Assembly: GCA_001938485.1 (NCBI GenBank)
Contig: MQRK01254915.1
Coordinates: 1-55,580, forward strand
Source: Girardia tigrina
Lineage: Eukaryota
Length of the DNA: 55,580 nt
Direction: 5' to 3'
The notes under the pieces were generated by a model. That model had not been told where the DNA came from, ran no database searches, and saw only the letters and a list, made by a program, of their open reading frames with translations. Made by a program: the position numbers and the translations under genes. This document shows, one piece after another, positions 4,701 through 40,700 of this stretch (positions are counted from its first letter, which is position 1; each line of letters begins with the position of its first letter).

Positions 4701-7700
4701 TGACAATTCGGGCACCTCATTTAGACAGTTGCCCTACTCATTTAAAACTATTTGACTATTAGTTACTCAAGAACAACTCAAAATTCTGCAATTTAACTTT
4801 GTCAGTTTTTCTAATCATATCGTAATGTTCCTCCTGGATGGAGAACTAACCTCACGATTACTCAACGATGTGAAAGCCACAATGCCTCCAACAAGTGGAC
4901 CAAAGTCCGGACAGAGCAAATAGGAAGATCAATTGTGCATAGCACCAAATAGTAAATACCGATCAAAATCTATATGAGAAAACGGTTTGAATCCTCAAGT
5001 ATTTCAGTCTCTTGAAAGTAAAATCTGGTCGCTCTAATTTTATCGAATTCATTTTTAAATAACAATCCTTGTTTATCTAATTTTTAAAAAAAATTAATTA
5101 ATAAATGTTTGATTTGTTCAGTGAATTTAATTTGATATATTTATTTTATATATATAAAAAATAATTTATAGGAATTAAAATATTAATAATAAACGAATTA
5201 AATTCTAACAGTCTTTTTCAGTTCCAGACAAAAAGATCGCTACTTTTAGTTTTGCTAGAAACATCAACAGTTTTCAATGTTTAGGCTTTTTGATTTGAGA
5301 GATTCTGGATAATTTAGGGTTGACAGTAATAATTGGTCGGGATTATAATTGGTCATAGGTGGTCATGCTTGGAAGATAAATAAATTTAATTTGTTCGGCA
5401 GGAAAGTTCTGGCCGGAAAATTAAAAAATTAAATCTTTTGGCCGAGAATAACTTTTTGGAAAATTAATAAACTAAATTTAATTTAATTTTGTCGGGACTC
5501 TTAGTCGAAAACTTGGACGTGGAAACCCACAATCGTTTTTAGATGATTTTCAAAGAACCAATAATGCTTTTGAAACATTTCACAGAAGTATCCAATGTAT
5601 TCTTGCGAATCCAACACTATAGAAAATAATAGATTTGTTAATAAAACTGCAAAGTTGAAAAATGTAAAAATTGCACAAATTCTGGAGGTCAAAATATGCA
5701 TTTTAGTTTAGGTTTGAGCGGAAGAAGTAAGCATAAAAAATAAATCATCAATAATAATTAAAAATAAAATTAATATAATTTTAAAAATAATTATTAAAAA
5801 TTTTAATTATTTAAAGTATGTTCAAGTTTATTTTTTTAAAAAATTCGCCTATTATTTTACGATTAAAACTTAAACTGAAGAAATTATATTTTTATTTTGT
5901 ACAAAAATATTTATTTTAATTAGTGTCTTTTGTGTTTCAAATTACTACTTGAAATACGTACACAATTATCAAATATAAATATAACAAATATCCATATAAA
6001 AATAATTTTAAAAATATATAAATATGTACATATACTGAAAATATGTTTTATACAATAAATTATATATTTGTTAGCAATTCTTATTATTTATATGTTCTGT
6101 ACAAATATTGTTTACCTTCAATATCTCTTTTATATAATTCAGAAGAATAATATAAAGGAAAGAAGTTATTATTGTCATTCAAGTTCTCCCATTTCGTTAC
6201 TATTTATTAGAGAATAATATATTTTTTCTTTTAAATAATAAAAATAACTTATGAAATTTTTTATTGATCAAGTTTTCATGTTTTTATTGTTAATAAAATT
6301 TTTAAATAAACATCATTTTGGCATCATTAATTTAAAATTATTATGTTAAAAAAATTAAGCATAATTATTTAAGGAGATCACTTTACTTAATATAATCATC
6401 TTCAATCTCACGATAAAATGTAATTTAACATACAACGAAATTTTCCACAAACATTCTCCAACCGAGGGAAGGTCGGTGTCAACTCCTCTAAAAAAATCAA
6501 TCTTATGTTTGATTCTGGCCAATAGAATCGTACTATTTCCAACTCCTCAGTGCTCTTCTACTATTATTAGAATATTCAATCTACTTTGAGGTCATCACGA
6601 ATAAGTTCAATGCGTACTATCAGATTTTCTAAATGCACGGCGGGTAGCTCCACTTGTACTTTTATAAAAGCTTTTATCAAATGATTAAGAGAGGAAAGTG
6701 AGTAAAAGAATAAATAAAAATCTCGGGTTAGAACAACGTTTTAAATTTTATACTATATTTACATTTTAAAGTATTTTTCCGTCTGAACTTTAAGTCTGTT
6801 TGAATTTGATTCGTAAACTACATTTTTCGTGAAGTTTAAAATAATTTCATAATTAATAAAATCTTATTTACTCACCAACACAAGTATTTTTTTTCTTTAA
6901 ATAACCTTGCCGGCACAAACAATAATAACTACTATGTGAATTTATACATTGTTGGATTCCACAAATATTTGGTTTTTCCTGACATTCATTAATATCTTAA
7001 GATGAATGAAAAATATTTAATAATAGTAATTATTGCAGACCTTCACATATGTTTTTGTCTTTGACTCTTCTTAATCCAGGAGGACATTTCGATTGACATA
7101 TAAAGCTCCCTAAAGTATTGATGCATTCCGAATCAGAGTCTGGACAAGGTGATGATTCTGCAGAGCATTCATCGATATCTTGACAAGATCTTCCATCACT
7201 GCTTAAAGCAAAACCAGATCGGCAGTTGCATTTAAATCGTGGAACTGTATTCTCACAAATCTGGTCACATTTATTTAGTGTGATATCAGCACATTCATTA
7301 ACATCTGCATGGACAAAGGTACAATTTTAAAGTTTATAAAATAGGTAAAATAGGAAAATTGAAATCCTATATAAAATATAAAAAATTATCAAATATAAAA
7401 ACAACGAGTCTGAAAGATTCCATAATACTTTGCAAGGTTCAATAGAAATATTGTAAGATTCAATTTGGAGATCCATTGAGTCGTCACCATGAGAAGAATC
7501 TCGTTAGCAAACTAATTACATCCAAATTTAGAAAGCAGAGATTTAGCTATCAACCCAAAGTAATCTAGGACGATTATTAAAAGATTCTGGTAGAAACTGA
7601 ACTACCTCATGTTAAATATGGCTTAAAAACTTTAAAAGTTGAAATTAGCTCGACAAGTAGGAGGCCTATGATTTGAAAGATGGGTACAAATCGTCACAGT

Positions 7701-10700
7701 TTTAAGTTTGGTCTTTCTTTTCTTTTGTGCAACCAAAATGACTTAACTTGGATCAAATAGATATTTGTGACAAAAATAGGTTCTGGACTTCAACCGGAAA
7801 AGTTTTAGGATTGTGATTACAATGATTACAGTGTGATTGTCGACAGCTGGTGTGACCCACCACAAGTTTTTGGAATAATGTCAAATTAACAAAACAAAAT
7901 CCTGATGTTAGGAAATCGACAAACCAGCCAGAGCTAATATACAGACGTAGTCCTACTACCCAAATTAATATGTATTCGGATACGTAAAATAATTCTTATT
8001 AAAAATTTAAATTATAAATAATATGTACTTATTTGTATTATAGATGAATTAATTTGATATTTCACGATAATCTAAATACAATTCTGAAATAATTTGAAGA
8101 AATCAAATAAAAAAGTTAACTAATAAAAATTTTATTCGCATTTAAAAATTTGTTCTCAAATTCTAAAGAATTCGGACATCTCTTTTTCAATTCAAAAGAA
8201 TTTGGACACTTAATAAAAATTATAATATAAATTTAGGCAATGAATTATTTTAAATTCAATATGGATTACTAGTAAAAACACAAGTAGTTGTTAATGTTTA
8301 AATATTTCAGTCGATTAAATTTTCCTTATTTTTAAAATATGGTTCGTGGAAAAAAGAATCATACGGAAATGCGTGAGAAAATATTTGCCATGTATATTAA
8401 AGGAAAATCAGTAAGGGAAATTTCAAAAATTTTACAGATAAGTAAATCGACGGTATTCGATAACATTAAAAAAGCTAAATACCGCCAGAATAACTCATCG
8501 CCAAAGAAATCTGGACGACCAAAGTTAACTTCCGCTACTGATAACCGGTGTTTGAAGAGGTTAATTCCTCAATATCGTCGTGCTACTGTTCAAGAAATCA
8601 ACGAGAAATGGAGTATGCAAACAGGCATTTCTTCTTCTCCGTCCACTTGTCTACGTCGAATACATAAATTAAATTATTCATTCTACAAGGTAAGATTTTC
8701 TTAATGAAATATAAGCATTGCGTAACACTTCTTTAAGGCTAAAAACAAACCCTCTCTGTCACCTATTCAAAAGAAAAAGAGAATTGAATGGGCTCTTAAT
8801 CATAGTAAATGGAGCCAAAATGATTGGAATATAGTTATTTTTTGAGACGAATCTCGTTTTGAATTGTCTATGGGCGACATGGAAAATCGGTCTATAGTAG
8901 TATAATACAGCATGACAACGACTGCATACATGCTTCGAGAATCTGCGTTTGAAATTTTAAGGACTTAAGGTTGAAGTTCTGCACTATACATCTTACTTTC
9001 TAGACCTTGATCCATCTAACTATCTTTGATAACTTTCTCGTCCGTAAAACCTTCACAATCAGGAACAATCCAAAACGGTTTTCATAAACTTCATCAAATT
9101 CCAAGTACCAAATTCCAAGGAAAAGTCAACTTACTTCTATTAAATCCATAGCTTAAAGTTTATCAATTAAAACTTTAGATCATTTCTAGAAACCCAATAT
9201 ATTATGTTAATATTTCTATACCAACAAAAGTATCAGCAAATTTAATATGGTCAATGAAAATAGTCGACAATGTTTTTATTCAATAAAAATATCTCTTCAG
9301 TTTTAAATATTTCATCTATTTTTTTTATTTCTTCGAATATCTTTCGTTGTTTGGAGATTTTTTAAAAAATCATAACTAAAAAACTTTTGATACAAATGTA
9401 TTTTATAAAATAAAAAATAATTTGTAAAATATTTTACCTTCGCAAAACTTTTGACCTTTGATTAAACTGAATCCAACTGGACACGATTTAGAATCATCAT
9501 CTTCTGCTATCAAACTAGACACAATAAAGTCTATTTTTGTACCCGAAGTATTTGTTATAACTGATAAATCTTGGACCAACAATTGTTGGACCATTAAGGG
9601 TTGCCTTTTACCTTTTTGAATAGTGATATTTGTCGACCACTGATAAGGTTCTATCTCTTTATTGATTCTAAATAATCTTGCCGAGTCAGAATTTAACCTT
9701 CCTACAATTAAATATTGAAAGATCTTGTTTGACATACCTCAAAACTAACCTAAGGTAGGATTCATTTGTACGATAATCTCTTTGTAATTTTCAAGTGTGA
9801 TTTTATCCGGATCAGAATTTAATACTGCTTTTGGACATTGAGCTTTTATTTGCGTTAATAGTTTTAATTTATTTTCTTTTGTGTGAAACTTATGATCCAT
9901 TTCCACTTTATTTCCTTCTGCCAATTCCATGGTCGTTTGCATTTCAAAATTTCCCCTACTGACGGTTTTTCCATTTCCCGCTGATCCAACCTAAATTAAT
10001 TCCATTTAATTAAAAAAATATTTTTGACGTTTTTATGAAATTAGTTGCATACTCTTACGTTTTATTTATCTCTAAAGGAAAACTTAAATAAACTTGTAAT
10101 TGATTAAGTCCGATCGGTTACTTAAGTTACTTATCACAAAAACGGATCTTTTAAAGGACATATTTGAATAAAACATTTTATGACTTTCATTATGTATTTT
10201 AGGAAAATTATTTTAAGATATATTATTAATTTTAACAGTTTGTTATTCTTGTTCTTCAACCTGAGTTTTTGTGATAAAGTAAACATTTAAATAAAAGATT
10301 CTATTATAATTTTACTTATCAGTATTACGGCAATAACGCTAATAAAATTACATACACCTTATTGGATCATGCGCAAAGTGATTTGTCCAATCAAATTAAA
10401 GTATCTTGAATTAAGGCATAAATGACGTCATGAGCATCTGAATATATGGGCAATAACAACTGCAGAACTGAGGAAGGCAAAAACACTTTGTGCAACACGT
10501 ATACGAATAAAACATTTCAAAATGTAGAATGACACCTTTTAATTGAATAACTAGATTACAATTTGTTATGATTTTCTTCATTCAACATTTCAATATTTTT
10601 GTGTAAATTTCATCAAATTGGAAACGTTTCAAAACGTGTATCAATGGGAATGTTTTGGATTGTCAGAAGAATTGCCGATTCCCATGGAAGTGATAAATTC

Positions 10701-13700
10701 TACCAAAATATACTTAAAACGATAATCTTTATGGGGTAAGTATCGGTATTTTCCGCTGATATCCGTCAAACAACTTCTTTACGCTATGCACAAGATCTAT
10801 TAGAGAATCTGTGTTCATCAATTCAGTCACTATATACGAAATGATAAGTACTAGATTTACATAAAAACGAAGACATTTAACAACCGTTAGTTTTAATTAA
10901 ATTAGACGTGAATTTACATTTACTCTAACAACCAAAATCAATACGAACCCCAAAATATCTTACAGCAAACAAAAGATCTCAATCTCCGCTGAAAGCCGAA
11001 TAAAAAAACTCTTACAAATCTCTTATTTCACGTTCCAATGTCTTCATTTCGTCTTTGAAGCGAATTCCGATTAATTTAAACTTTGATTATATCGACCGAT
11101 GAGAAAATGCGACTAAATCGTCGGCAACAAAAATACAAATGACAATTAAATCTGATGAGCGTTATTTGACTTTTTATACTATCTAAATGTCATTTTTTGA
11201 ATATTTAAATAATCATATCTGTTTCTTCTTTTTATTTCCAAAGCAAGCGCTTTTCTTTTCCAATTATTAGTAATTTTATACACATTTCTAGCAATTTTTT
11301 TTATAAAAGTGGTAATCAAAACATCTCAAACTTGAAAAAAAATACTTTTCTTATCTCTAATACATCTTGTTACTAGACGAAAATATTAAGCATATTAAAA
11401 ATGAACTGATATGATGATGTAGCACTTAAAACATTTTAAATTTTTTCAACTCTCCTGCTTTTTATTTCCTGAAATAATAATCGAAATAAAAGAAAAGAAC
11501 CCAGAAATAAAGTTGTCTCTCGTCAAATGATCATTTTTGTATATAAGTTTCTCATAAAAACTGCCACCATTAAAATGGTAATTAAATTAGTTTTGAAAAA
11601 GATTCATGTAATAAAAGACTATATTAACAATGATATACTCGCGTTTATATATCAAAGCAATGTTTATGTAATCATTATGTCATTTAAATCATGAAAATAC
11701 TTTCAATAAAGTTGAAGAGGATGGTGTTTGGACATTGATTTTAGGATCAATAGATTTGATCAACAATGCTTCACACATCACCCTCTCCCAGTAATTATCA
11801 AATTTTGAACACAAAATCTTAAAATTGCTTACATCAACTTTACTATTCAAACAGTTCTTCTTATGTTGAGCAATATTGCTATCACTTTCCCTGCGATTAT
11901 GTTCCTGAATCCGTTGACAGAGATGACGACAAGTCTCTCTGATGTATGTGGCGTCACACCCATTACATTTATATTGATAAACTAAATTGGAACATAACCC
12001 AGTTGGAGTGATGGATTTACTACTAAACAAACTTCCTATCTTACATGATCTAGATACAATTTTTAAATTTAATAAATTATTTTCATCATGTTTCAAAATA
12101 GAGTTTTTGAATTTCCTGAAACCCTCAGAGTAGGGAACAGTCAAAACAAAACCAATTTTATCATAATTATTATTTATCTGATTTTTGTTTTTGTCGCTAT
12201 TTATGGTATTTGATTTTTCATTTTCATTTTCCGATTTAATTAATTTATCGACAGTTTCACGAGTTAATTTTTCAACTATCGATTTGGAATATCCATTTTT
12301 ATGAAGTAAATTCATTAACTTGTCAATACTTTCATTACATTTAGCGTACATAGACGAAAGTGTCCAAGATCTATAGATCAAACCTTTTATCATATTTCTT
12401 TTATATTTAGGTTCACAAAAACTGTTAGGGGTTGTATATAACCCTGTATCAGTTTTCTTTCTATAGATCCCAGTTTCAAAATGGTTGTTTTTTGCTCTTT
12501 CTATCAAAAGATCTAAGAATGGTAAAACATTATTGTTTTCATATTCTACCGTGAATTTTATATTTGAATGTAGGGAATTCATATAATTTAAGAAACATTC
12601 AACTTGTTCTTTATTATCAAACAATAGAAAAATATCATCCACATAACGCTTATAAATTTTAGGTTTAATACCATCATATAGACTTATTTTTTCTTCAATC
12701 TTGGAAAGAAATATCGAAGCTAAAGTTGAAGGTAATGGAGAACCCATAGCTACCCCATCAACCTGTCGATACCAATCATTATTAAATAAAAATCGTAAAT
12801 TCGATGTTGCAAAATATAACGATTCCCGAAAAGCAATCTCATCAACTAAATGATGTTCATACATTATTTCTTCATCATTTGCAACATAAGTCTATAGTTT
12901 CATGTAAAGGAACATTTGTAAACAAATTTACAACGTCAAACGATACCATGAAATTATTATTTACGTCAAGATTAGAAATTACCTCAACAAACTCAAAACT
13001 NNNNNNNNAAGTGAATTCAGAAGAAAGTAAAGGCTTTAGTTTTGAATCTAGATATTTAGCGATTCTGTACTGGGAAGTGTTAATCATTGAAATTACTGGT
13101 CTCATAGGAATTCCGTCTTTATGAACTTTTGGCAATATTGCTCAACATAAGAAGAACTGTTTGAATAGTAAAGTAAGTAATTTTAAGATTTTGTGTTCAA
13201 AATTTGATAATTACTGGGAGAGGGTGATGTGTGAAGCATTGTTGATCAAATCCTTTGATCCTAAAATCAATGTCCATACACCGTCCTCTTCAACTTTATT
13301 GAAAATATTTTCATGATTTAAATGACATAATGATTACATAAACATTGCTTTGATATATAAACGCGAGTATATCATTGTTAATTCAGTCTGATGATGACGG
13401 TTGATCCGTCGAAATTAATCACAATATATTCTGACGAAAATTTTTTGACTTTTAAAAATTCATTATCATCATTTTTTAAATATTTATAAAAAGACTATGT
13501 TTTTGATTGTTATTTTGTATACACGTAAAAAAAGAGTTAAGTGTAATTGAATAAATTGATATTTTTGAATTTATTTTAATCCGAATTCAACAGAATCATT
13601 TCCTATTTTTAAGAATAACTCAGAAATTATCTAAATTCTATCAATTCATCATTAAAAGTAAGTGCTTACCTCATATGCTTCTAGCCAAAGCAAAGGAGTC

Positions 13701-16700: not shown

Positions 16701-19700
16701 ATCGGAAACCTTAAAAATCGACTGAAATTTTCCATAGACAAATTTCTATGGTATTTTTTTGCAGATCGGTATACCATTTTAATTGAGGTTTGATAATCCA
16801 TTGGACTGTATATAAATGTGATTATCTGGATGCTTATTCACATATTTCATTTTCTAGTGGACGATTCACCATCGAATGTTTAATCACCGGATGATTTATC
16901 ATGCCATTTTTTACAGGTTGAAGAAAAATTAAGTACTACTTAAAGAGCAGATCAGGCGTGCAATTGAAAGTTACGGGAGATCAAGTCGTTTGACGTTTTT
17001 AAATGCATTCTCTCATTTGTCATACTGTTAATAAATAAAGTAATTTTTATGTTGTTGTAATGTAAATATATGTTATATATATTTTATCTTAATTCATTAG
17101 TCATAATTTTAATTCAGTCTTGGTCAGGCAGGGAAAATAGGTGTCCTAAAAATAGTTTGTTGTGAAAGTTATCGAATTTAGTACGAATTATCGTTAAAAC
17201 AATTGTTTTAAGCAGGTGTGATAAATCATCAGGTGATGAAAAGTCTTAGAATCATAAATTTCTATTTAAATTCAAATTTCTTATTTATTTTATTTATATT
17301 TTTTAATCCTCTTTTGAATTAAAATTTAAAACGCGAAATTTAAATAACATTTGAATATTGGAACTATTTATCAATCATCAAACATAGTTTGGAGGGGTTT
17401 AACTTTTGATTTTGGTGTCCAAACTACATCTACATTTTCTACTCTACATCGCTTGAATAAAAAATTTATTAATTTACCTTTATCTGAACATTTCGGGATC
17501 CAGACACATTTTATTGTTTCCACTGATTTTTCAGAACACAAACCATTTGGTGACAAACATCTTCGACTTCTAGTTTTAACAGATGAACTATCAACTGTTT
17601 CATAACATGTTTGCGAACATTCACTCCACTCAGACCATGGTGACCATATACTTTTATTTTTATTATCGCATTTGTTTTCGTTACATTTTTGAACATCCTT
17701 AGATGGACCACGACACCATTGTCCTCCAAAAGAAGGTGGTGGTTCCGTACATGTTCTGTCACGTTCTTGAAGTCCTGTTCCACACTTTGTAGAACACTCA
17801 GTCCATGATCCCCAATTAGACCACTGTCCATATACTATCATGTGTACTCAATAATTACTTAATTATAAATAATAAATTGTACCTGGGCATGGAGATTCAT
17901 TACATTTTGTTTTCATAATATTTTGACCATTACAATCTACACCTCCGAATTTTGGTGTAGGTTTATCACAGCGTCTGGTCTTTTGTTTCTCACCAGAACC
18001 ACAACTTTTAGAACAATATGACCATTTCGACCAAGCACTCCAATTTCCATCAATTGGACATTCGCCTTTTGAACAAGACCTGATCTGTACAATTTTAGTA
18101 TAAACTGAGTCTAATTTATTTAGCAAAAACTAATTTTAATCCTTAAACTTTTTATAACTTGTAGATAACAGACTTTAATACTAATTTAATATATAAATGA
18201 TACACAAAAATAAGAAATTTTAAATATTTTGATTAAAAATAAATACTAGAATTTGATATGACCTTTAAAGTTTTCTATTATTTACATTATTAAGCCTTAC
18301 TTCTAAATCTTTTCCTCTACAAAATTTTCCATTATTCTTCGGTTCAGGGTTGTTACAGTGTCGCTCTCTACGTTGGCTTCCACCCGAACCACATGTGACT
18401 GAACAAACTGACCATGAGTTCCATTCGGACCATGCCCCATCAATTGGACAAGGCAAATTTCTTTCACATAGAATGTCTTCCATTGCATCTCCAATACATG
18501 GCTATCTTATGAATTGAAAATGATAGCAAAATAAATATTTACCTTTCCTAAATTACTAGGCGGAGGATTATCGCATCTTCTAGTTCTCTGGCGGATACCG
18601 GAACCACACGTTGTTGAACAAGGACTCCAGTCTTGCCAAGAACTCCATTTGCCATCCGTAGGACAAAATCGTAATAAGCATTCACGTTTTTCTTCACTTT
18701 CTCCGATACATGCCATTCCTTCATTAGATGGCGGAGGATTATTGCAAAGTCGTTTTCTAATTCATTTATATTCAAATTGATTCCAAAAATATAATACCGT
18801 GCCATAAATCCTTTTCCGCAACTAACACTACATTTAGACCATTCTTCCCATTTTGACCATCCTCCAGCAATTTGAACTGTTACATATGCTGGATGAGAGT
18901 AAACTTCTCCTCTATCACTTGAAGCCACACAAAAATATATTCCTTCATGTTCCTTTTGAACTCCAATTATTCTTTAAAATTAAAATAAAATTTCTTGAAA
19001 TATTTCAATTAAATATACAAATATTTGTTAAAACAATAATGGGGAAAACTATAAGTGTTAAAATTAATCTTTGTGATATAACCGAAGCTGTAAAAGAAAT
19101 TATATTCTTAAAAGAAGGTATTCTTCAAGAATTACAAAGAATTATCTTGGCTGGAAAACAACTGTAGGATGGAAGACATTTGGTCGATTACGAAATTCAA
19201 AAAAAATCAACATTATATTTGGTTATGAGGCTGAAAGGGGGTTCCAAAAATGAGCAAGACATCCAACAATACGAACATAAACTAAGTCAAAGAAGAGTAA
19301 TCAAAGCGTAATTAACCAGATCAAGAAGATTATTATTCCAGAACGCTGTTTTCGAAGACGAATGGATAAAGAGAGTGGAAAAATATACCGAAAAACACGA
19401 TCTATTATTGAAAGAGTATGAAAATATGTTGAACCTTGGTTACAAATTAAAAAGAACGGAAATTGGAAGATTAGAAGATGAATTAGATAAAATCGAAGCT
19501 GAGGATCGAGAAATAAATGAAGTAACAAAAGAACGTTACAATATTTTAGAAGATCAAAAATATATTCAGCCAACAAATAAAGGTTATGACACCAAAGAAT
19601 TGGAATCGTTCGAGAAATTACAGATTCCTACGTTTGATGGGACGATTTCAAAATATGAAAATTGGAATGCCATTTTTATGGCGTTCATTGATACCGTAAA

Positions 19701-22700
19701 TGCACCCAAAACAATAAAATTACTTCATTTCAAAAAATATTTAATTGGAGAACCTTCACGAATAACTGAACGGTATGGATTCGATGATAATACTTATAAA
19801 GAAGCATTAAAAGCTTTAGAAAAACGATACGGAGTGGAAAAGAGCTATGTATCTTTGAAAGATGAAGTAAACCGATTTCGAAATGTTGATCGTTGAAAGT
19901 TTAAAGAAGTAGAAAAGTTTACGAATCTTCTACAATCATTAGTGAGTAGATTAAAGCGTTTGGAAAAAATTGCAGATTTGCATCCGGGATTTTTATATCA
20001 ATGTCTAATACTTAAATTACCGGAGATAATGGTTGCAGGATTTGAAAGATAGAGAGAAGACCACCATAAAGATCAAGGAGTTGAAATTTTATGTGAATGG
20101 GTAACAAGAGAAACAGAGATTCGTCAAACAGCTTATGAGACATTATACGGAGTTGATTCAAAAGAACGGATCAAGGACTACAAATTAACAAATATGACAC
20201 AATCTGTTGGAATGACAAGGAAACCAGGTGCGAAATTTTTTAATTCAGAGAAAAAGCAGAAGTGTCCTTGGTTTGAAAAAGGAGAATGTAGTTTCGGGGA
20301 TAATTGTCGAATGATACCTATAAAAGAAAATTCAGCAAAAATTCAACAAACAAATCAAACTGTAGAGAAGTTATGAAGGACTTCTGTAAATTTGGAGAAA
20401 AATGCAAATTTAGCCACTCCAAAATAAGATCAGATTACAAGATATATGATAAAACTGAAAGAAATCAAGAGAGCAAACATAACGATAAAGATAGTGAACT
20501 AAGACGAGAGACACAAAATTCAACTTCTTTGACAGTTGCAATGAGTAAAAATGTGATACTGGATCAGGTGGAAATCGCAATGCGAACATTACCCGTAACA
20601 TTAAAATATGGTGAAAATAAAGTGGATGTCATAGCTTTGCTTGACGATGGTAGTAATTGCAGATATATCTCAGAAGACGTGGCAGAATTATTGAAAATAG
20701 TAGGGAATAAAGAAAACATGACAATTCAAATGTTGAGTGAGACAGAAAGAGTTATGTCTACTAATCAGGTTAAAATTGAGATTTCTGGGGAAAATAATCA
20801 GGAGAGTTGGCCGTTTACAGCCTTAGCCTCAGTTGTTAAAGGAATTAATGTAATAAATTGGAATAGGGAGTCAAAAAAATGGAGACATTTGGAGGAAGTT
20901 CCATTTATTCAAATTAAAGAAGACGAATCAGTTAGCTTAGATCATCCTAAATTTCACAAATCTATCATTGAGATTAGTGGAGGTAAAAATAATCCAATTG
21001 CACGGTTAACGGCGTTGGGTTGGACAGTTGTTGAAAAAATGGGTAAAGGAGAAAGAAAAAAACTTGAATGCTAATTTTTCTTGCGCTGAAATTTTGACAG
21101 ATGCAGATTTAGATAAAATCGTCAGGTGTCAAGAAAAAAATGAATTTTAAATCTGCTTATATATGCAAGCAGTGATTATGTCAACAATGGTTTATTATGT
21201 CATCTAAACACGCCCAATAGGGTTTTGAAAGACCCATTTGAACATTAATCTTAGAATCTAAAGATCTGATATAAAGTGCTTCACAGGCCACCCTCTCCAA
21301 ATAATTCTTAAAACGAGAAACGTTTTAATTTTTCGTTTAAATTGACCAAATCCCTCTGAATATGGGATGCTGAAAATGTATTTTAAATTTGTTGATTCTT
21401 CTTTAACATTTTTTATCTTTAGATCCTAAGATTAATGTTCAAATGGGTCTTTCAAAAACCCTATTGAGTGTGTTTAGATGACATAACAATCCATTTATTA
21501 TATAATCACTGCTTGTCTATATAAGCAGATTTAAAACTGATATTTTTCTTGAGACCTGATGATGACGGTTATACTGTCGAAATTAATTGTCATAAAAAAA
21601 TAATGTTTAGTTAACAAATAGCGTGATTTTGTGTTTAAAAATAATTTGCCATCATTTTTTAATTTTCTGAATAATAATAATAACAATTTATACTGGTAAA
21701 AGTAGTGAAAATGGTTTCTTCCTATGCGTCCACTATTGAGCTCTTGATAATTATGTTCACGTAGAATATGCATCACATTCATATAAAGAGAAGAATCTTT
21801 TGTCAATTCTTGAAGTTATTCCAGAAACATAATCATGAAGGTGGCGACAAAATTGTTGAATATTTTGAGGATTATATGAGGACATGAAATCAAAAATTCT
21901 ATTTTTTTATTAAATTATTTATGATGTATCATTAAACTATTGTATCTAAAATCTATAAATCTTTAAAATGTTAATCGAAAATGATGAATAAATATTTAAG
22001 ATTAAAACAAATAACTGTACTGGATATGGTTTGTTAAGCGGTCCATAATGTTCTTATATTATTTTGCCTTGGGGGCCACATAATCCTTTTATAAAGAGAA
22101 TTAATCATATTTTATTATAGACAGAATATTTATTTTTATAAAATTTACTAGGTTTTCTATTATTCTTTCAGTTGAGAAGGTCTTTATTGCATGTTGTTTT
22201 AGAGTAATGACTCTAGCAAATCTACTGTTCCAATGATTATATTATTACAACTTGATGAAATACTGACTAGTAATAATTAATTTTTAATCAATATTAAAAT
22301 TTACTAAAAATTGCCAAATAAAATTTTAAAAAGTTTTATCATTTAAACTAACATTATTTTACAGAAATAATTTGTTATACTCATAAAAACTGTACAGTGT
22401 AAAGCCATGGGTACACTTATTCGAGTCGTGATTCGATTGTAAAGTTTATGTTATTTTTTAAAATTATGTTTGATAATATTTTTTATTATTTATATATTTA
22501 AATATCATAATATTATTACCTAAGTGAACCATTTTTTATAATAGATTTGACAAAGTCAAAGTCAACTTTCTTTTTATCTTTATACCAACTTATTGCTGGA
22601 ACTGGATATCCTTCAGCTGCACAGTGTAAAACAAGAACATCCCCCAGATTTACCGATGTATTGCTTGGCATGAGTGTTAAAACTGGAGAACCTAAATTAA

Positions 22701-25700
22701 ATTTAATAAATGTTTTTTAAGAATTTTTAATTCCAATTATCATATCTGGGAATACAGAAAAAAATTAATTTCTACATTATTTTTTTTAAAAAGAATATTT
22801 TTGATCTTCAAGAAGATTTTGCTGTCTATTTGGTTGGATAGGAAGGGTAAAGTGTATTAGGAACTGCTTCCAAGGAACTAAACCATTAATGTAAAGGTTT
22901 ACTTTTATTTACTGTTGATAAATGGATTAATTGAATGCATCGGTTAAGGAAAAGCGACCAGAATCGGTCAATCGTAAAGATGTCATTTTTCACTAGGATA
23001 ATGCTAGGCCTCACACAACTTTGGTCCCTCGGATAAAAATGATGGATATTGGTTGAAAATTGATGTTGCACTCATCATATAGTTCTGATTCCGCACCAAT
23101 GGATTACAACTTTTTTCGATCCTTGGACAACTCCATTCATGGTAAAAACTTTCAATGACAATGGCGTTATAAAATCTCACTTAACTCAGTTTTAGACGGA
23201 AAAAGATCATACTTTCTACGAGCGTGGAATTTTCAAGTTGTCAGAGAGACGTCAAAAGGTCATCAAACAAAATGGAAATTAAATCATATATTAAAGTTAA
23301 TTTCAAGTAAAAAAAACTCTTTTTTCAGTGAATAAATCGGCAATTAGGTAGTTGGCAATATAAGTTATAAAAAATTATTATATAAAAATTAAATAATCAA
23401 ATAATAAGATATTATAAAATCAATTTTATCTACAGTACTGGTCAAAAGTCTTAGAACAAAGTACATAAATATCAAATTTATTGTTGCAAACATTTGTACA
23501 AGCAAAACATTGATTAAAATATGGCAGTAATTGATACAAAACATTAAAGCACTATTGTAAAAAGCTGTCTCTGCATGATTAATATTTAGTTGACCTACAG
23601 TGGTTCTTCAAAACATTAAGGCCTTAGTAGCCTCTAAAAACCAGACCGATTTTATTGCATTTTGTAAGTCTTTCAAATAAGTGAGTCTTCTAATTGACAC
23701 TTTTTTCTTTAATATAATCCAAAGATTCTCATTAGGATTAAGGTCTGGGCTGTTTCCAGGCTATTGCAAGACATCAATTCTATTTTCCCTAAACCCCTGT
23801 TTCACAATCTTTGCCTGGTTGCATGGGACACCTTCCTGCTTCAATTTTCCACAATAATGAATTTGCATAATTAGCTTCAGTTTATTTTTCAAAACCTCTT
23901 TGTAAGTAGTGGCATTCGCGGTTGTTCCTGGAGGTAAAACCACAAAGGACGTCGGCCAAAAGCAGAAAAGCACCCAATACCATGCAGGAAGATGGATGCT
24001 TAACGGTAGGGTTTGTATACCATGTATTAATTTTGACCAACTTGTTTCCTTATAAATGGTCTATAACTCTGAAAAACTAGATTCATCTGAAAATAATACT
24101 TTTCGTCATTCAGCTTGAGTCCAGTGGCCATATTTCTTACAAAATGCAATGCGATCGGTTATGTTCTTTTTACTCAAAAGGGTTTTTTGGTTACTTTATA
24201 AGTACGACATTTAAATGTAACCTGCAATCATCGTCTTATACTTCTGCAGTTTAACCGAATTTCAGGTAACTCTGCTTTAATATCTGAAGCGGAGAGAAAC
24301 GGATTCACTACACACATTCTTCAAATCATACTATCATACTTCTTTTTTACAACAATATGAAAATTAAAATATTTATTAACAGTATGACAAATGAGAAATT
24401 CCATTTAAAAACTTCAAACGACTTGAACTCGCGCAACTTTCAACTGCACACTTGATCTGCTCTTTAAGTAGTACATATTTTTTCTTCGGGTTTCTTTGAC
24501 TTCCTGCTGCGGCCTATAAAAAACTTCCAGTCTATATAGCCCTTTCTTTCATTATTCCCTGAAGAAAAGTCCACATTGATGGATGATTGCATAAAAGCAA
24601 TGATTGAAGGCTTTAAATTATAAAATTTTATTTAACCCTTAAATGCATGATTTTTTATTTTTTCATGAAATATTTGATGACAGCTAAAGAATTTTGACGT
24701 TTATATCAATATTGGCGGGAGTTTTGACATGTTTTGTTATAATCGTCATAGACAAAAATGTACAAAGATAATTTATTTACAAAGGACAGCAATTATTTAC
24801 ACAAACTGGATGCATGGCACTTTCAAACGTTTGTTGTATCATTTTTGATACAAGATGCATTCAAGGGTTAAAGTATGATGAATTATTTAATAAAAAATCA
24901 TTAAAAAATTTTATTTAAAGTGTGATGAATTGTCCGGTGATGGAACATCCGATGGTGAATCGTCCTCTAGAAAAATAAAAATGTAATGAAGCGTCCTGTG
25001 ATGAATCATCCGGTGATGAATATTAACATATGTTAATATTCATAACGTTATACTGATTAAATTAAAAATACATGAAATTATTAACAGTTTTTAAATTGTA
25101 AATAATATTTTTAAAGTTCGTACTTTTAACAAGGAAATTGACTTGGCCTTGGGCTTCCCCTGCTGTATTGGACGCAATGCATTGGTATGTACCCGTATCT
25201 CGGGACTGAAAAAGGTAAATATTTAACCGTATTTCTGAAAGCAATTATACTTCAGCATGATCTATAATTAAATTTGAGTTGCTTATAAAAAGCCGAGAAC
25301 TGTTTTGAACAACGATTCCATTCTTTAACCATATTATTGAATCAACTTTTCCTTCCACTTTACACATAAGGATGGATCGTTTTAGATTTTCTTTTGGTTG
25401 ATCCGACTGATAAACAGTGACTTTTGGTTTTGCTGGAAAAGAAAAGAATCGATTATACCATGAAAAATATTAAAATTTCAACAATAAGAAAATAATTTTG
25501 AATTTTTAAAGACATGGACAAAAATAAAAGTAAAATAAAAATATTTTTTAATTTTTATTTCAGAATTTTAATGTTTCTAATTTTTTGCTAACAATATATA
25601 TTATATAAATAAATTAAAATCTCAATTTTTACAAATTTACAGTTATCATTATTAATTAAATAAAAAGTATAAAACTCAAATTATTATAAAAGTCTAAAAG

Positions 25701-28700: not shown

Positions 28701-31700
28701 AAAAGTAAATATATTTTAAATCATTATAAAACAAATTTTATGAGTTACAAAAATTCTCACATCTGAGACATTTGTGTATTAAATATGATACATTTACTGA
28801 TACATTAAAAAATACTTTATGTTGAAATATTTTATTAATTCTTATAATTGTATCAAAAATTAAACATTCCTAAATAATTTGAATTGTGATATATATTTAA
28901 TAAAATTTTGAAGACCAACCCACAACTTCAAGATTAAATTTGTATTCATCTGAACCCGCTCGGTTGGTGGCTATACATTTATATTCACCCTCATCTTCCG
29001 ACCTCACAGCCTTTTTGATTAATACTCCTCTGCCATTAGAGTTTGATTGTGAGTCAATGGCTCTTCCATTAAACATCCATTTGATATCCGGTTTGGGATG
29101 TGAATTGGCGATGCAGGTAAATGATATCCATCGTAATTCTTGGATCGTAATTTTTGATTTCGGTTTGTAAGTGAATTTTGGTCGAGCTGAAAATAATATT
29201 ATATATTTAATATAGTAAAAAGTAAAAAATATTTAGACAAAATATAAATCGTAAACTTACTAAAAACTGATAAATAGGTTGAAGCAGTTGATGCTTCGGC
29301 ACCAGATCTTTCCCCAATACAAATATAGTTTCCTGCATCTTCCGGCTAAATAATTTTAATTATAATTTTTGGATTTAGTTCAATTAACCTTTATATCATA
29401 AATGTATATTTCATTATCAGAATTTAATCTAAATCTATTTCCCAAAACACTTGTTAATGATTGACCTTCTTTTTTCCATGTTACAGTTGGTTTTGGTTTA
29501 CCTTCGACTCTACATGTTAAAGTAACTGAACGCCCTTCGTCCGCTGTTACGGACATTGGTAAAGAAACTTTTGGCAATACTTAAAAAATAAAAAAGTATT
29601 TACTAATAAAATGTTTCAAGCAAAATAAAACTAACGTTCAACATTAATCTGGAATGTTAGTCGATCTTCTCCAGCTGAATTCTTTGCAATACATGTAAGA
29701 GCACCTTCATCTTCATTTCTTAACAAATATTACCAATTAGATATTTTATAATTGGAGCGGAAAATTAAGATTGACCAAACATTTTACTACTTGGAAAATT
29801 TATATATAATTAAATAAAAATAAATTAAATAAGTGTAAGTAAATTAAATAAAGTTTTAAATAATTAATTAAAAAAAGTAAAAAAATAATAATTAACTAAA
29901 TGATTAATTATAAAAACGAATAAATAATTAAGAATTATAAAATGAAATAAAATAATAATTTAAATTTGGTGATTACTAATCACCAAAAGTTAAATAAAAA
30001 ATTAATCAAATCGATTTGATCACGTGATTTTCTGATTGGAAATCTCGATTCAATTTGAAATTGGGATGGTGTGTATAAATGAAATTGAGTGTGATTGATC
30101 GATGTTTGTGTAATTGTAAGTGTATGTGAGTATGAAATTGCTAATTGTGATTGGGGTGTGTGTGTGTGCCTTTTGCTTGTGTTTGTTTAATATTTTACAT
30201 TTTTTTGTGTTATAAAAAAGGAAAAAATGAATCGATTTCAATTGCAATTTGTATTTAATGTAAAAATGGGGTGATTGTGAGAAACCAAAGTTAAATAATG
30301 ATTGAATAAAAATTTAAAAAGAAAAGTGTCTTGTTTTTAAGCAGTGAAATAATTTCAAAAAAAATATATATCGTTTGATGCTGATAAAATTTTACTGGGG
30401 CTCACATTTCAATTTCAAACTGTTTGTATAAAGTATTCTCTAATGCCTATTCGATCGGCGCTAAATTTTTTTCTGTCTTTATTAGAAACCATCGTCGATG
30501 GGCCGTTAAGACACTATATTGATTCTATCAATACATTTAAATCAGAATTAATTAAAAGAAAAGCTGAAGTTACTTCTGTTTCTCGGTCTAATTCAATATT
30601 TGAAGTACGGTTTCAGCAACAATAAATATAAATTAACAAACTAAAAGTACATTTATGTATTCATGTTGCTACTAAAAATCCTATAAATTGGTCGAAATAA
30701 GTAACAATTCGACACTCAGTTGACAAAAAGGAACTTTTTATCATACCCATTTGAAAATAAAAAATTTGATGACCTGGATTTTATAATTACAGGATATGCG
30801 TTAATTGTGTTTTAAAAAAGTTTTATTTAATGCTTCCATAATAGCGTATTTTTTGAGCTTGCGTAACGGTTTCAAAAGTGTGCTTCGTCCACTTAACTGT
30901 CTCTAAATTGTCTTGTATCCGTATTAGGATCAGCATTCGTCAAAAAAAGTTTATCGAATTAGAGACTATTCAAAAGTTTTACTCAAACATTACACTTACT
31001 TTTGTAAAAAGAGATATTGTTCGTTTAGGTTAAGAGTTAGTACGAAGGCTAAATTAAATCTCAGAGAAATGTTAAATAAGTTATAGAAAATTACTTGTTG
31101 ATCAAAAAGAACCTGAAAAATCTTTAACGTAAGGAAATACTCTGTTGTCTTAGGAGCTCTAGTCACAGTGTATTCAAGAAAAATTTTATTTTACAAGAAT
31201 TGGAAAGTGTAAGTTCTTAAAGACAGAAAAGAAAAGATCGTCAAATTAGAACGCTTGACTTTTATTCAAAGCAAATATACTTCGAAAAGAAAACGTTTTA
31301 TCACCATTCCCCAAGAGATGTGTAGCTGCTACATTTAATTTTTATTCAAATTTTTGTGTTTTTTATTTACGTTTAAGAAACGTGTTCTTGATCTAATTTT
31401 AAATGATTTAGAAAATATAAGATAAACTTTGGAATAAAAATGATACAAATTAAGTATCACTTAAATTGAATAAAAGTACAAAAAAAGATATTAAATTTAC
31501 TTCACAACAAACAATATAAATTCAATTAACTTAATTCAATAAAATTGTGTAATTAATTTTTTAACTATAAATATTAAAACCTTAAAATTAAAAAAAAAAT
31601 GATTAATAAAAAAAACATTTTCTTATTTTTTTAATTTATTTTCCTTAAGATTTGCAGAAAGAAACTAATTGAAATAATTCTTTAAAACATCGAATGAATA

Positions 31701-37700: not shown

Positions 37701-40700
37701 TTATTATACTTTCTTGTTTCTTAATTGTATAATTATATCGTACTTGGTAAAAGTACACAAGTAACTACGCATGTCTGAACTTTTCTGTAGTTTTTATGTT
37801 TGATATTCTTTAGGTGTTTTTCAAAAACAAAGTTATTTAAATAGGAAAAATCAATGAAATCAACTTACTTATGATGACTACGTCGACACTTTTTGAATCT
37901 TGGCTGACTTTATTGGTACCTGTACACGTATATCGACCACTATCCTCTTCCTTCGCATCACTTATTTCTAAAAGACCAGTTCTGAACAAAAAGTTTAATA
38001 AATATTCATAAAAACTAAAAATCAAGTTGTAAATGTGAACCTTTTATTAACATTACAATAATCGCAAAAATCACATTAATTTGAAACCCAAATTTATTGT
38101 TATTATTTCTATGTGCATAGATATGATTTTATTTAATAAAACAATTATTTATTTCCGTGTTTTAAGATTTGTATGAAGATGCATTACCTAATGAAACATG
38201 TGTACCACCAACTTAATATTAGGTTCTGATACTATTCAACTATTTGCAAGTTATATTTTTGATACCACGTAAATTGTAGACTCTACGAGCTATCCTTTCA
38301 AACCTTCAGAAGTAAAATAAAAATACCTTCTCAGACAAAATGAAACGACATATTTAAATATTTTTCTACTAATTATTGGTACTGATGATTTGTATAATTT
38401 TGTTTTAATATTTTTGAGAGATGGTAGGTTGATATGCTATCAATTACACTATCCGACATTCAAATTTAGACTATGAAAATCTAGTTAAAATTTTCAATTC
38501 GCCAAATGATTATAAAGTTCTTTAATTTAAAATTTTAACAAAAATTATATAATAACCTAAAACATAAAAAGTACATAAAATTTATAAAAATAAAAAAAGT
38601 TAAAAAGGATTTAAAAAAACAAACAAAAATTAAATAATTGTGAATAAATTTGAATCCAATTGACAGATTATTGAACAAAAAGTTTTCAAGTCAATCAAAA
38701 TTTATTAATTTCGACGGTTTAACCGTCATTGTTAGAACAAATGATTTTTCAAACGAAATTTACTTATATAGTGCAGTTAATGATTATGCAGTCAGTACGT
38801 CGTCAGTATATCATTTAAAAACTCCCAACACAGTTGTAGAGAATGCACTTTGAACGCTAATTTTAGGATTCAAAGATCTTATATATAACGCTTTACATGT
38901 CACTCTCTTCCAATAATTTTTAAATTGAGTGCACAGAATTTTAAAGTGTTGTGAATTTATATCTCCTTTACAATGTCTTCTATGTCGTGCAATGTTACTT
39001 CCACTTTCATTACGACTGTGTTCCTGGATTCTCTTACATAGATGACGCGAAGTCTCTCCAATGTATATGGAATTGCACCAATTACATGTATATTGGTAAA
39101 CGAGTGTAAAAATAATGATTCGGATAGATCAACGAATCACTATTTTTATCAAAAAAATATAATAGTCTAATAAAGGAAAAACTAGATTAACACAAAATCT
39201 ATCACGGTGATTGTATTAATCTAATTCTCGTCAATCAATTAAAATACAGAACAATAAAATTAAATTCCGAAAACAGACAAATCACTTTATTTCTTTCAAA
39301 TCATACATGTATAAACTTAGTAAATTATAACGGTAAGTAATTATATTCTTTTAAATTTGTGATCGATTAATTTTATCGATTCATTTTATTTATCTTAGCC
39401 TATTCGAAACAGTTGGAGATCTGAAGAAATTTTTCCCATTGAACCATCGGCCAACATTAATATATTTGTAAATAATTAAATGAACAAATGCGAGCTTCAT
39501 TATTTTTTAAGACTTAGAATTACCAATCGAAGATTAAATAAAATAAAAGTTGTTTGCGTAACTATAAAAATTCCTTCAATGACTCCATAAACTGCGTTAC
39601 TAATTTGAGAACGACTTTCACGATACCGAATACTTTTTTTCGTACCAATATATATGAGACTTGACATCCCGAATATTTTTAAACCCAATCGTAGATACAA
39701 ATTAACTTTTTCTCCTCTTGTGATAAAAAGTTTTAAATTACTATTTCTATCATCTTTCAAAGCTTCAAAAGTTTAATTTCGAAGTTTGAAAAGGTAAATC
39801 CAAATCGAAATTATTATAGCTGATGAAGTTAAAAACACGACATTGTAGAATACCGCTCTTGAGGTTTTGCCAGAAAATTGTCCCTTTAATTTGCTCAATT
39901 TCCTTTTCATAAAAAAAACAAACGCAACAAGATACATAACCGCACAAATAAATCATACATCACAAACAGGAAAAGCATATTCACAAAAAGAAACTGATCA
40001 AATAAGATTCTGTACATGCACAAAAGAAAGGTAATGTCAGAGTCATTCTAGTCACATGAAATAGAGATATCACAACGAGATCCGAACACAATCCTAACGG
40101 AGATTTATTGCCGAATATGCTTTCAAATTTTTTGGTAAGAGATATTACTTTTAAACTTATAGAATTATTTTAGGCTTTCAAAATAAAATTTTTAAATATT
40201 TAAACCCCTCTGAATATGGTACAGTTAACACATTCAATTTCTAAACTTTTATCATTAGTGTTGCAAGATTGCTCTTGATCTTGAACGTTTAAAATTTCAG
40301 TATTATTTTTATCAATTAATTTATCAATAGTTTCTTTTTGTTAATTTCTCCACTATCGATTTTGAATATCCGTTGTCATATAATAATTTGTTTAAGTTAT
40401 TAAGACTGTCATTACATCCTTTATATGCAGAGGAAAGAGCCCATAAGCGAAAAATAAAACCTTTATTCATATTTCGACGATATTTGAATTCACAGAAACT
40501 GTTCAGTGTTTTATACCAAATTTTTTTTGAAAATAAAATGTTAATTAAAAAAAAAATTTAATTTAAATAATTTTTACAAACGCAGTAAAATTCGATAGAT
40601 AAATTTTAATAGTGAAAGTTTTAAAATTTGTAAAATTAACAAATATAAATAAAACCTTGAATCTGTTTTCGTCCCAAGTCTGAAAATTCCTTTACCATCC

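Follow-up and report, generated by a model that had tools for sequence, protein, structure and literature searches.

The insertion analysed here is almost certainly a solo LTR of a Ty3/gypsy family that carries RNA-derived exons of a host gene, in this copy a piece of an otopetrin gene. It lies on the minus strand of a 55,580-nt stretch of the Girardia tigrina genome (contig MQRK01254915.1), referred to below as the window. Its parts are as follows.

39105..40074, minus strand: solo LTR of a Ty3/gypsy family, 970 bp, TG..CA, recognised by its ends, copies, primer site and domain order
40075..40079, no strand: target-site duplication ACGAG at the LTR 5' end, letters read
39100..39104, no strand: target-site duplication ACGAG at the LTR 3' end, letters read
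40080..40514, minus strand: interrupted Penelope-like element, upstream half, about 70% identical to the copy at 11689-12891
38778..39099, minus strand: interrupted Penelope-like element, GIY-YIG half (Pfam)
39902..40074, minus strand: 5' block of U3, 77-97% identical in sister LTRs with other cargos
39854..39901, minus strand: first cargo piece, 48 bp, 96% identical to G000:C173176 on the strand opposite a coding exon
39676..39853, minus strand: otopetrin exon A, beginning exactly at an AG acceptor; parent C228601:4192-4372
39527..39675, minus strand: otopetrin exon B, 18,631-bp GT-AG intron lost; parent 23004-23152
39419..39526, minus strand: first 108 bp of otopetrin exon C, 7,636-bp intron lost; parent 30789-30896
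39344..39418, minus strand: AT-rich block after the cargo, common to sisters L437 and L438; putative core promoter and end of U3
39330..39343, minus strand: TAATTACTTACCGT motif at which LTR halves exchange; putative U3/R boundary
39105..39329, minus strand: putative R-U5, with AATAAA at 39286-39291 and hairpins at about 39180-39229 and at 39105-39152

The initial annotation had described a 970-bp segment running from TGT to ACA within an ACGAG duplication, and the letters at 39105-40074, with ACGAG on both flanks, bear this out. It had also taken the segment to be a single integrase-type insertion into a Penelope-like open reading frame. The interrupted frame is of GIY-YIG type (Pfam E 1.4e-5) and is split at SDLV|YQYTC; a less broken Penelope copy at 11689-12891 spans the split site (12 protein letters there), and the integrase-type insertion is supported. 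A search of the organism's own genome with the element, as had been proposed, gave at least 41 matches from 40 scored of 202 candidates, and the same ends recur beside other 5-bp duplications (GTTCT, TTTAT and ATAAT). No terminal inverted repeat was found at the element ends, where 12 of the 30 terminal bases pair.

On the minus strand of the window, exons between about 17371 and 49505 belong to a large gene with immunoglobulin and thrombospondin-type exons, which by eye we take to be hemicentin-like; the LTR lies in one of its introns, on the same strand. The Penelope element at 11616-13389 has 217-bp inverted arms flanking a frame with RT and GIY-YIG, and what we presume by eye to be Tc1/mariner remnants are present at 2161-2938 and 8336-8704.

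By itself the cargo scores 24 bits against Pfam Otopetrin PF03189 (E 2.2e-5; cut-off 27.8). What settles its identity is that three exons on host contig G000:C228601, which adjoin one another in the element, match it at 92-95%; the next coding stretch of this parent reaches 67 bits against the same model, over the cut-off. Comparison with the parent gene confirms the proposed intronless capture, since the element lacks two introns, of 18,631 and 7,636 bp, at exact GT-AG joints. The portion of exon C ends mid-exon. About 600 bp of the minus strand had been assigned to otopetrin: the peptides are present, the length is 435 bp (39419-39853), and the remainder of the element, apart from the 48-bp piece at 39854-39901, is T/G-rich LTR sequence common to sister LTRs. 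A homologue search with one parent otopetrin exon returned no match at E 1e-3. A later Pfam match in the parent (G000:C228601:30939-31670) holds two in-frame TAA codons, one of which lies, by eye, inside a short intron. The source of the 48-bp piece reads GCG|GT exactly where otopetrin begins; the coding exon opposite this piece has no Pfam match and, by eye, is presumably TOG-domain-like.

Across the cargo region the parent exons are open for 146 codons. Five otopetrin LTR copies are 95-98% alike and 93-95% identical to the parent, and the frameshifts already recognised in the initial annotation, a -1 and a +1 indel, are common to all five copies compared; the frame was thus broken before the family spread the cargo. 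That a host otopetrin was captured in an LTR and spread with it agrees with the four insertion sites found in eight contigs, three of which have duplications (ACGAG, GTTCT, TTTAT), while the 3' end at the fourth is not recognisable. Two roles suggested for the cargo are not favoured by these data. As a source of antisense RNA it has the wrong orientation, being sense to the LTR and upstream of the putative U3/R boundary. The seeding of a new paralogue is unlikely because the cargo is small and frame-broken: its 146 codons are a minor part of the channel, both indels are in all five copies, and no complete multi-helix channel frame was encountered.

The loss of introns alone does not name the enzyme responsible, and Penelope elements are plentiful in this genome, so a non-LTR element (L1- or Penelope-like) might have produced a processed otopetrin cDNA or retrocopy that entered the LTR at the DNA level, by insertion or repair, and was then amplified. 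We consider this very improbable. Both a poly(A) tail and a flanking duplication are absent at the two cargo ends, the mid-exon end falls at a match to sister LTRs whose middle the cargo replaces, many unrelated cargos stop just before one common block, and there is no free otopetrin retrocopy among the 41 matches listed.

The family itself belongs to Ty3/gypsy, not to BEL/Pao or copia. The hairpin pattern of the U5 end occurs at 911 places in the genome, compared with 26 for a control pattern; the copy number is lower than 911, because the assembly keeps alleles as separate contigs, and the family comprises roughly several hundred copies. At 197 places (control 0) the hairpin end is followed by TGGTGTCAGAA, a primer site complementary to a genomic tRNA-Leu(CAG) gene, the genome-wide search for primer sites having covered the Leu pattern only. 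The succession of hairpin end and primer site identifies the hairpin end as that of U5 and the window minus strand as the element sense. On C184710 a 3' end of the window type (91%) is followed by the primer site. Beyond primer sites of the family lie gag (weak DUF7041), RT, RNase H and integrase, in gypsy order, and at locus L141 Pfam finds RVT_1, RT_RNaseH and Integrase_H2C2 in succession. The Gag motif is CHCC (CX2HX9CX3C) in three of the 14 loci scanned (L141, L148 and L156), and none of the 14 has a CCHC motif. At L162 a COG4-carrying LTR with the 5' block of the window copy is preceded by an integrase frame and a purine tract; such a tract is present before the 3' LTR for both L162 and L163. 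The nearest RT relatives are gypsy-type proteins with the same domain set, without clade names.

The LTR pairs and internal partner expected by the initial annotation exist in the family. L148 (G000:C189159) is a complete element whose two LTRs are 90% identical, hold the same middle and are flanked by the duplication ATTAT, and gag-pol stands next to the primer site elsewhere; no otopetrin-bearing LTR joined to an internal region was found. The interior of L148 measures 1.6 kb and contains gag only, and each of its LTRs includes a purine tract, the start of the LTR of another subfamily and a Ly6-like antisense piece. Four further loci (L126, L193, L194 and L219) have an LTR preceded by a purine tract and followed by a primer site, which suggests tandem elements with a common LTR. 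Target duplications were recorded for 36 solo LTRs including that of the window, with 31 different 5-mers; these were selected by a 5-bp match, so that 4-bp duplications would have escaped, and no 4-bp duplication was seen among four unresolved LTRs with both ends.

The TGT..ACA ends and the 5-bp duplication had led to a typing as BEL/Pao or copia, with a Ginger-type DNA transposon as the alternative. The first is contradicted by the RT-RNaseH-integrase order and the CHCC Gag; no DUF1759-type Gag of the BEL/Pao kind is present in the L141 and L142 frames scanned, and the order differs from that of Ty1/copia, in which integrase comes before RT. The reading in which genomic DNA is carried by a DNA transposon of the Ginger or Pack type, or by an LTR of the BEL/Pao or copia kind, is refuted by the lack of inverted repeats, the primer site, the purine tract, the paired LTRs, the gypsy domain order and the lost introns, and we give it almost no credence. 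The ubiquitin-Gag element, put forward as a possible partner, is likewise rejected: its Gag is of the DUF1759 BEL/Pao type, and at seven of seven loci no family LTR ends lie within 1.5 kb. In the window this element (18990-21074, plus strand) has a ubiquitin domain before a BEL/Pao-type gag (Pfam ubiquitin, DUF1759 and CCCH fingers); it has 31 genome matches and overlaps a region of host exons on the opposite strand.

Among the gypsy clades, CsRn1 resembles the present family in its CHCC Gag, weak DUF7041 and RT-RH-IN order. As far as it is described in PMC2582038, its primer is tRNA-Trp, in contrast to tRNA-Leu here, its duplication is 4 bp and not 5 bp, and its LTRs measure about 330-380 bp (PMC3601003, PMC2582038), compared with 573-1498 bp. 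Judged by primer site and duplication length, the family is not a CsRn1 member. Opposite the gypsy pol of L141, at 6145-6876 on the minus strand, lies a leucine-rich-repeat frame (Pfam LRR_4 E 1.7e-14).

Within the LTR, the terminal hairpin (39105-39152) adjoins the primer site in the 5' LTRs of the family. Over 110 distinct ends 5.22 of 6 inner positions are paired, whereas shuffling the partners gives 3.40 and at most 3.67 in 1000 shuffles, a statistic that is inflated by related sequences, and the fold in the window has a z of -4.05; the hairpin appears to be maintained through compensating changes. In the window copy AATAAA follows 40 nt past the exchange motif. A TAATTACTTACCG-like motif is present in 37 LTRs, and of their 666 pairs 29 are alike on one side of it only; these 29, selected for an identity drop, represent about six independent groups. 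They are 0.90-0.96 identical on the cargo side and mostly 0.5-0.6 past the motif, or the reverse. The break comes right after TTACCGT: copies that share a cargo diverge after it, and those that share the 3' part are unlike before it. In the replication of LTR elements the first strand transfer joins the R-U5 of one RNA to the U3 of another, at the start of R. From these crossovers, and not from RNA ends, we take the motif to be the putative U3/R boundary, and since the halves exchange at this one motif the cargo would be placed in U3. The AT-rich block after the cargo is probably the promoter. On the opposite strand the crossover motif (39330-39343) reads ACG|GTAAGTA, a near-perfect splice donor.

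The slot occupied by otopetrin holds other pieces in sister LTRs. Both ends could be placed by hand for 57 LTRs (573-1498 bp) from the loci fetched, and the 55 of at least 620 bp represent 31 distinct middles. In a partial scan 11 of the 31 were traced to host genes and 20 are without assigned source. Pfam traced otopetrin, COG4 with VPS11, FAIM1, Piezo, histone H2B, RPL15, a bromodomain and an ion-transport domain (TRP-like); parent exons traced the cargos of L200 and L103 and a JIP3-like piece, the names Ly6 and JIP3 being ones we assume by eye. The Pfam scans gave a match at E 0.01 for 8 of 43 and 9 of 35 frames, and cargos are undercounted because only frames of about 48 codons or more and of low F/I/L/K/N/Y content were scanned. 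Pieces resembling PLAC8, FHA and a rhabdovirus nucleocapsid stand at the cargo position in LTRs without placed 5' ends. Introns have been lost at exact GT-AG joints in COG4 (2), VPS11 (1), L200 (1) and L103 (2). At least six cargos are antisense: H2B, RPL15, PLAC8, FHA, the 48-bp piece and the Ly6-like piece. There are many copies of VPS11-like fragments that contain an intron, on G000:C216672 and at least five other contigs, which makes the direct source of the VPS11 cargo uncertain. The nucleocapsid-like frame of L152/L253 (G000:C182746, about 16900-17250; Pfam E 1e-4, 21.8 bits, below the cut-off) lies directly upstream of the family motif, U5 and primer site, that is, at the cargo position. 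A broken nucleocapsid-like stretch is also found at L351 (G000:C121098:5969-6481), about 1.5 kb upstream of an L103-type LTR and on the same strand.

How such pieces entered the putative U3 slot is best considered from their two junctions. What is observed is that host exons, intron-free and in sense, lie inside the LTR at several insertion sites. The route that we favour, with modest confidence, is that read-through RNA was spliced from the LTR into the host gene, with a predicted RT switch between this RNA and normal element RNA to follow. A provirus in or upstream of a gene would be transcribed beyond its own 3' LTR; splicing would then join a GT donor, located in U3 or in a cargo taken up before, to a host acceptor, giving the 5' junction. 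To judge from the sister LTRs, minus-strand synthesis would copy R and the last approximately 80 nt of U3 of a normal RNA before RT moved over to the chimeric RNA where the two match over a short stretch, giving the 3' junction. In LTR elements a changed U3 ends up in both LTRs, and recombination between the LTRs leaves solo LTRs; the altered U3 would be carried along in this way. The slot is presumably dispensable, so that cargos could replace one another, stack and decay, and the otopetrin piece, which encodes no channel, would be one of them.

The 3' junctions carry short matches that can be read as marks of an RT switch. At the otopetrin breakpoint the parent and sister L438 agree at 11 of 13 nt; no other of the 589 positions matches as well, the runner-up reaching 8. 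At that of FAIM a 9-nt ATCGTCAAA, unique within 308 nt of the parent, is common with the sisters, exact in four of the six shown, with one mismatch in the fifth and weaker in the sixth. For the 5' junctions we considered the 11 sense pieces that have an upstream neighbour from another source; a later Piezo exon and the TRP-like exons were excluded, as they are probably from the same gene as their neighbours. Five of the 11 begin exactly at an AG acceptor (otopetrin, COG4, FAIM, L200 and the first piece of the bromodomain LTR), an excess with a rough binomial p of 1e-4 to 3e-3; of the other six, three can be read either way, and three start away from an acceptor, either mid-exon or at a less well defined point. 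Upstream host exon ends were rejected as the cause of the acceptor starts, the best shared suffix being 0-4 nt. A GT partner was found for two of the five. Nine loci read AAA|GTAATT where five FAIM-bearing LTRs switch to the exon; the pre-promoter block of the family is present in six of these loci. The otopetrin donor, GTTATT, is weak, and a 3-nt overlap is present there too; none of 11 matches to the 48-bp piece is an LTR holding it together with the GT. The upstream partners found in the other three cases (COG4, L200 and the bromodomain LTR with its first piece) have no GT, and a search for a GT-bearing sister of the bromodomain LTR gave 0 matches.

These data also bear on a second account, in which the LTR is the same solo gypsy LTR and both junctions are RT template switches onto co-packaged host mRNA, without read-through or splicing; this would be the model of Tan et al. 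2016 at work within U3. Micro-matches mark the two 3' junctions that were tested, and some of the 5' junctions have them too: sister L180 reads CAG|GA at the 5' joint of COG4, with a 4-nt CAGG overlap, and the bromodomain piece has AATGACA. The family already exchanges LTR halves between different RNAs, three of the five acceptor-start cases are without a GT partner, and the parent loci lack a donor provirus, no family LTR being present in the 36 kb read for otopetrin, the 11.5 kb for COG4 and the 7 kb for the bromodomain gene. Splicing into exons is no explanation for the antisense cargos, of which there are at least six. A double switch does not, however, predict the exact acceptor starts in 5 of 11 pieces or the FAIM sisters with GT at the joint, and the antisense RPL15 cargo, which retains part of an intron and 3' flank, was not copied from mature mRNA. 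We regard double switching as a possible but weaker candidate than splicing of a read-through RNA followed by one switch; the two routes may coexist within the family.

A 2478-nt contig of run X3, which we guess to be RNA, was considered as a read-through RNA and rejected as evidence, since it fits an assembly mosaic. It covers 39419-40075 and continues with 1479 nt unlike the window. It has the letters of the LTR copies at 8 of 8 diagnostic sites in exon A, with one letter private to L002, those of the parent at 8 of 8 sites from 39470 to 39642, and LTR letters again at three near-end sites; its 5' block is L016-like.

Capture of host sequence by retroelements has several precedents. In retroviral transduction the captured gene is flanked by the two LTRs and, as a rule, maintained by selection as an oncogene, and according to Swain and Coffin (1992) one junction reportedly arises by splicing of read-through RNA and the other by an RT switch. 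The cargo considered here would, in contrast, lie in U3, and it is frame-broken and turning over. LTR-mediated retroposition in animals was described by Tan et al. 2016 (PMC5131818), where Drosophila retrocopies replace part of internal reading frames. Those cases and the present ones share partial intron-free mRNA, junction micro-matches, stacked genes and repeated copying; they differ in that the cargo here is within the LTR instead of replacing internal frames, survives in solo LTRs, recurs at one position family-wide and frequently starts at an acceptor. The word 'solo' has 0 occurrences in the main text of that paper, whose supplements could hold LTR-internal cases. Cassandra, Helenus and Ajax (PMC10886601; bioRxiv 10.1101/2023.07.14.548913) likewise have host RNA-derived sequence in both LTRs and in solo LTRs. 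As presented there, they are non-autonomous miniatures with one fixed 5S rRNA or tRNA piece that is a polymerase III promoter (PMC10886601), whereas this family has many interchangeable, decaying protein-coding pieces, also on gag-pol elements. Abnormal template switching also brought foreign sequence into BARE-2, Veju and Bs1, in BARE-2 into the LTR (PMC13317346); from the account in that source, BARE-2 took the sequence of another retrotransposon, once, and Bs1 has host pieces as an internal chimeric gene. In the portions of the two sources available to us, PMC3726574 counts genes within full-length elements without separating LTR and interior, and PMC3601003 notes U3 variability with no occurrence of 'captur'. 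The literature covered, mostly open-access main texts, does not describe any gypsy family whose LTRs or U3 hold interchangeable spliced exons. The kind of event is known; its position, inside the LTR, and its family-wide scale are unusual.

For the cargo itself, a position upstream of the putative promoter means that a solo LTR is not expected to transcribe it. Transcription from 3' LTRs and host introns could include it, and small RNAs from it are possible. Practical consequences follow for annotation, in which cargo LTRs resemble fragments of ion-channel and housekeeping genes, and for the study of replication, the family marking the point of first strand transfer without RNA data. It also offers a natural series for testing gene capture by LTR elements, splicing against template switching.

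Known LTR-mediated retrocopies lie mostly between the LTRs and cripple the element. A cargo in U3 would be costless to the element, doubled in each cycle and would outlast the element in solo LTRs, so that host exons would be spread wherever the family inserts. We tentatively suggest, as an idea still short of an even chance, that the U3 of this family may be a standing exon trap: 3' LTRs would be read through and spliced into neighbouring genes, reverse transcription would fix the captured piece in the two LTRs, and a changing stock of host exons, antisense pieces and possibly viral RNA would be scattered over the genome by hundreds of solo LTRs. If this is true, exon shuffling could readily draw on the trap, as could the production of small RNAs that target host genes.
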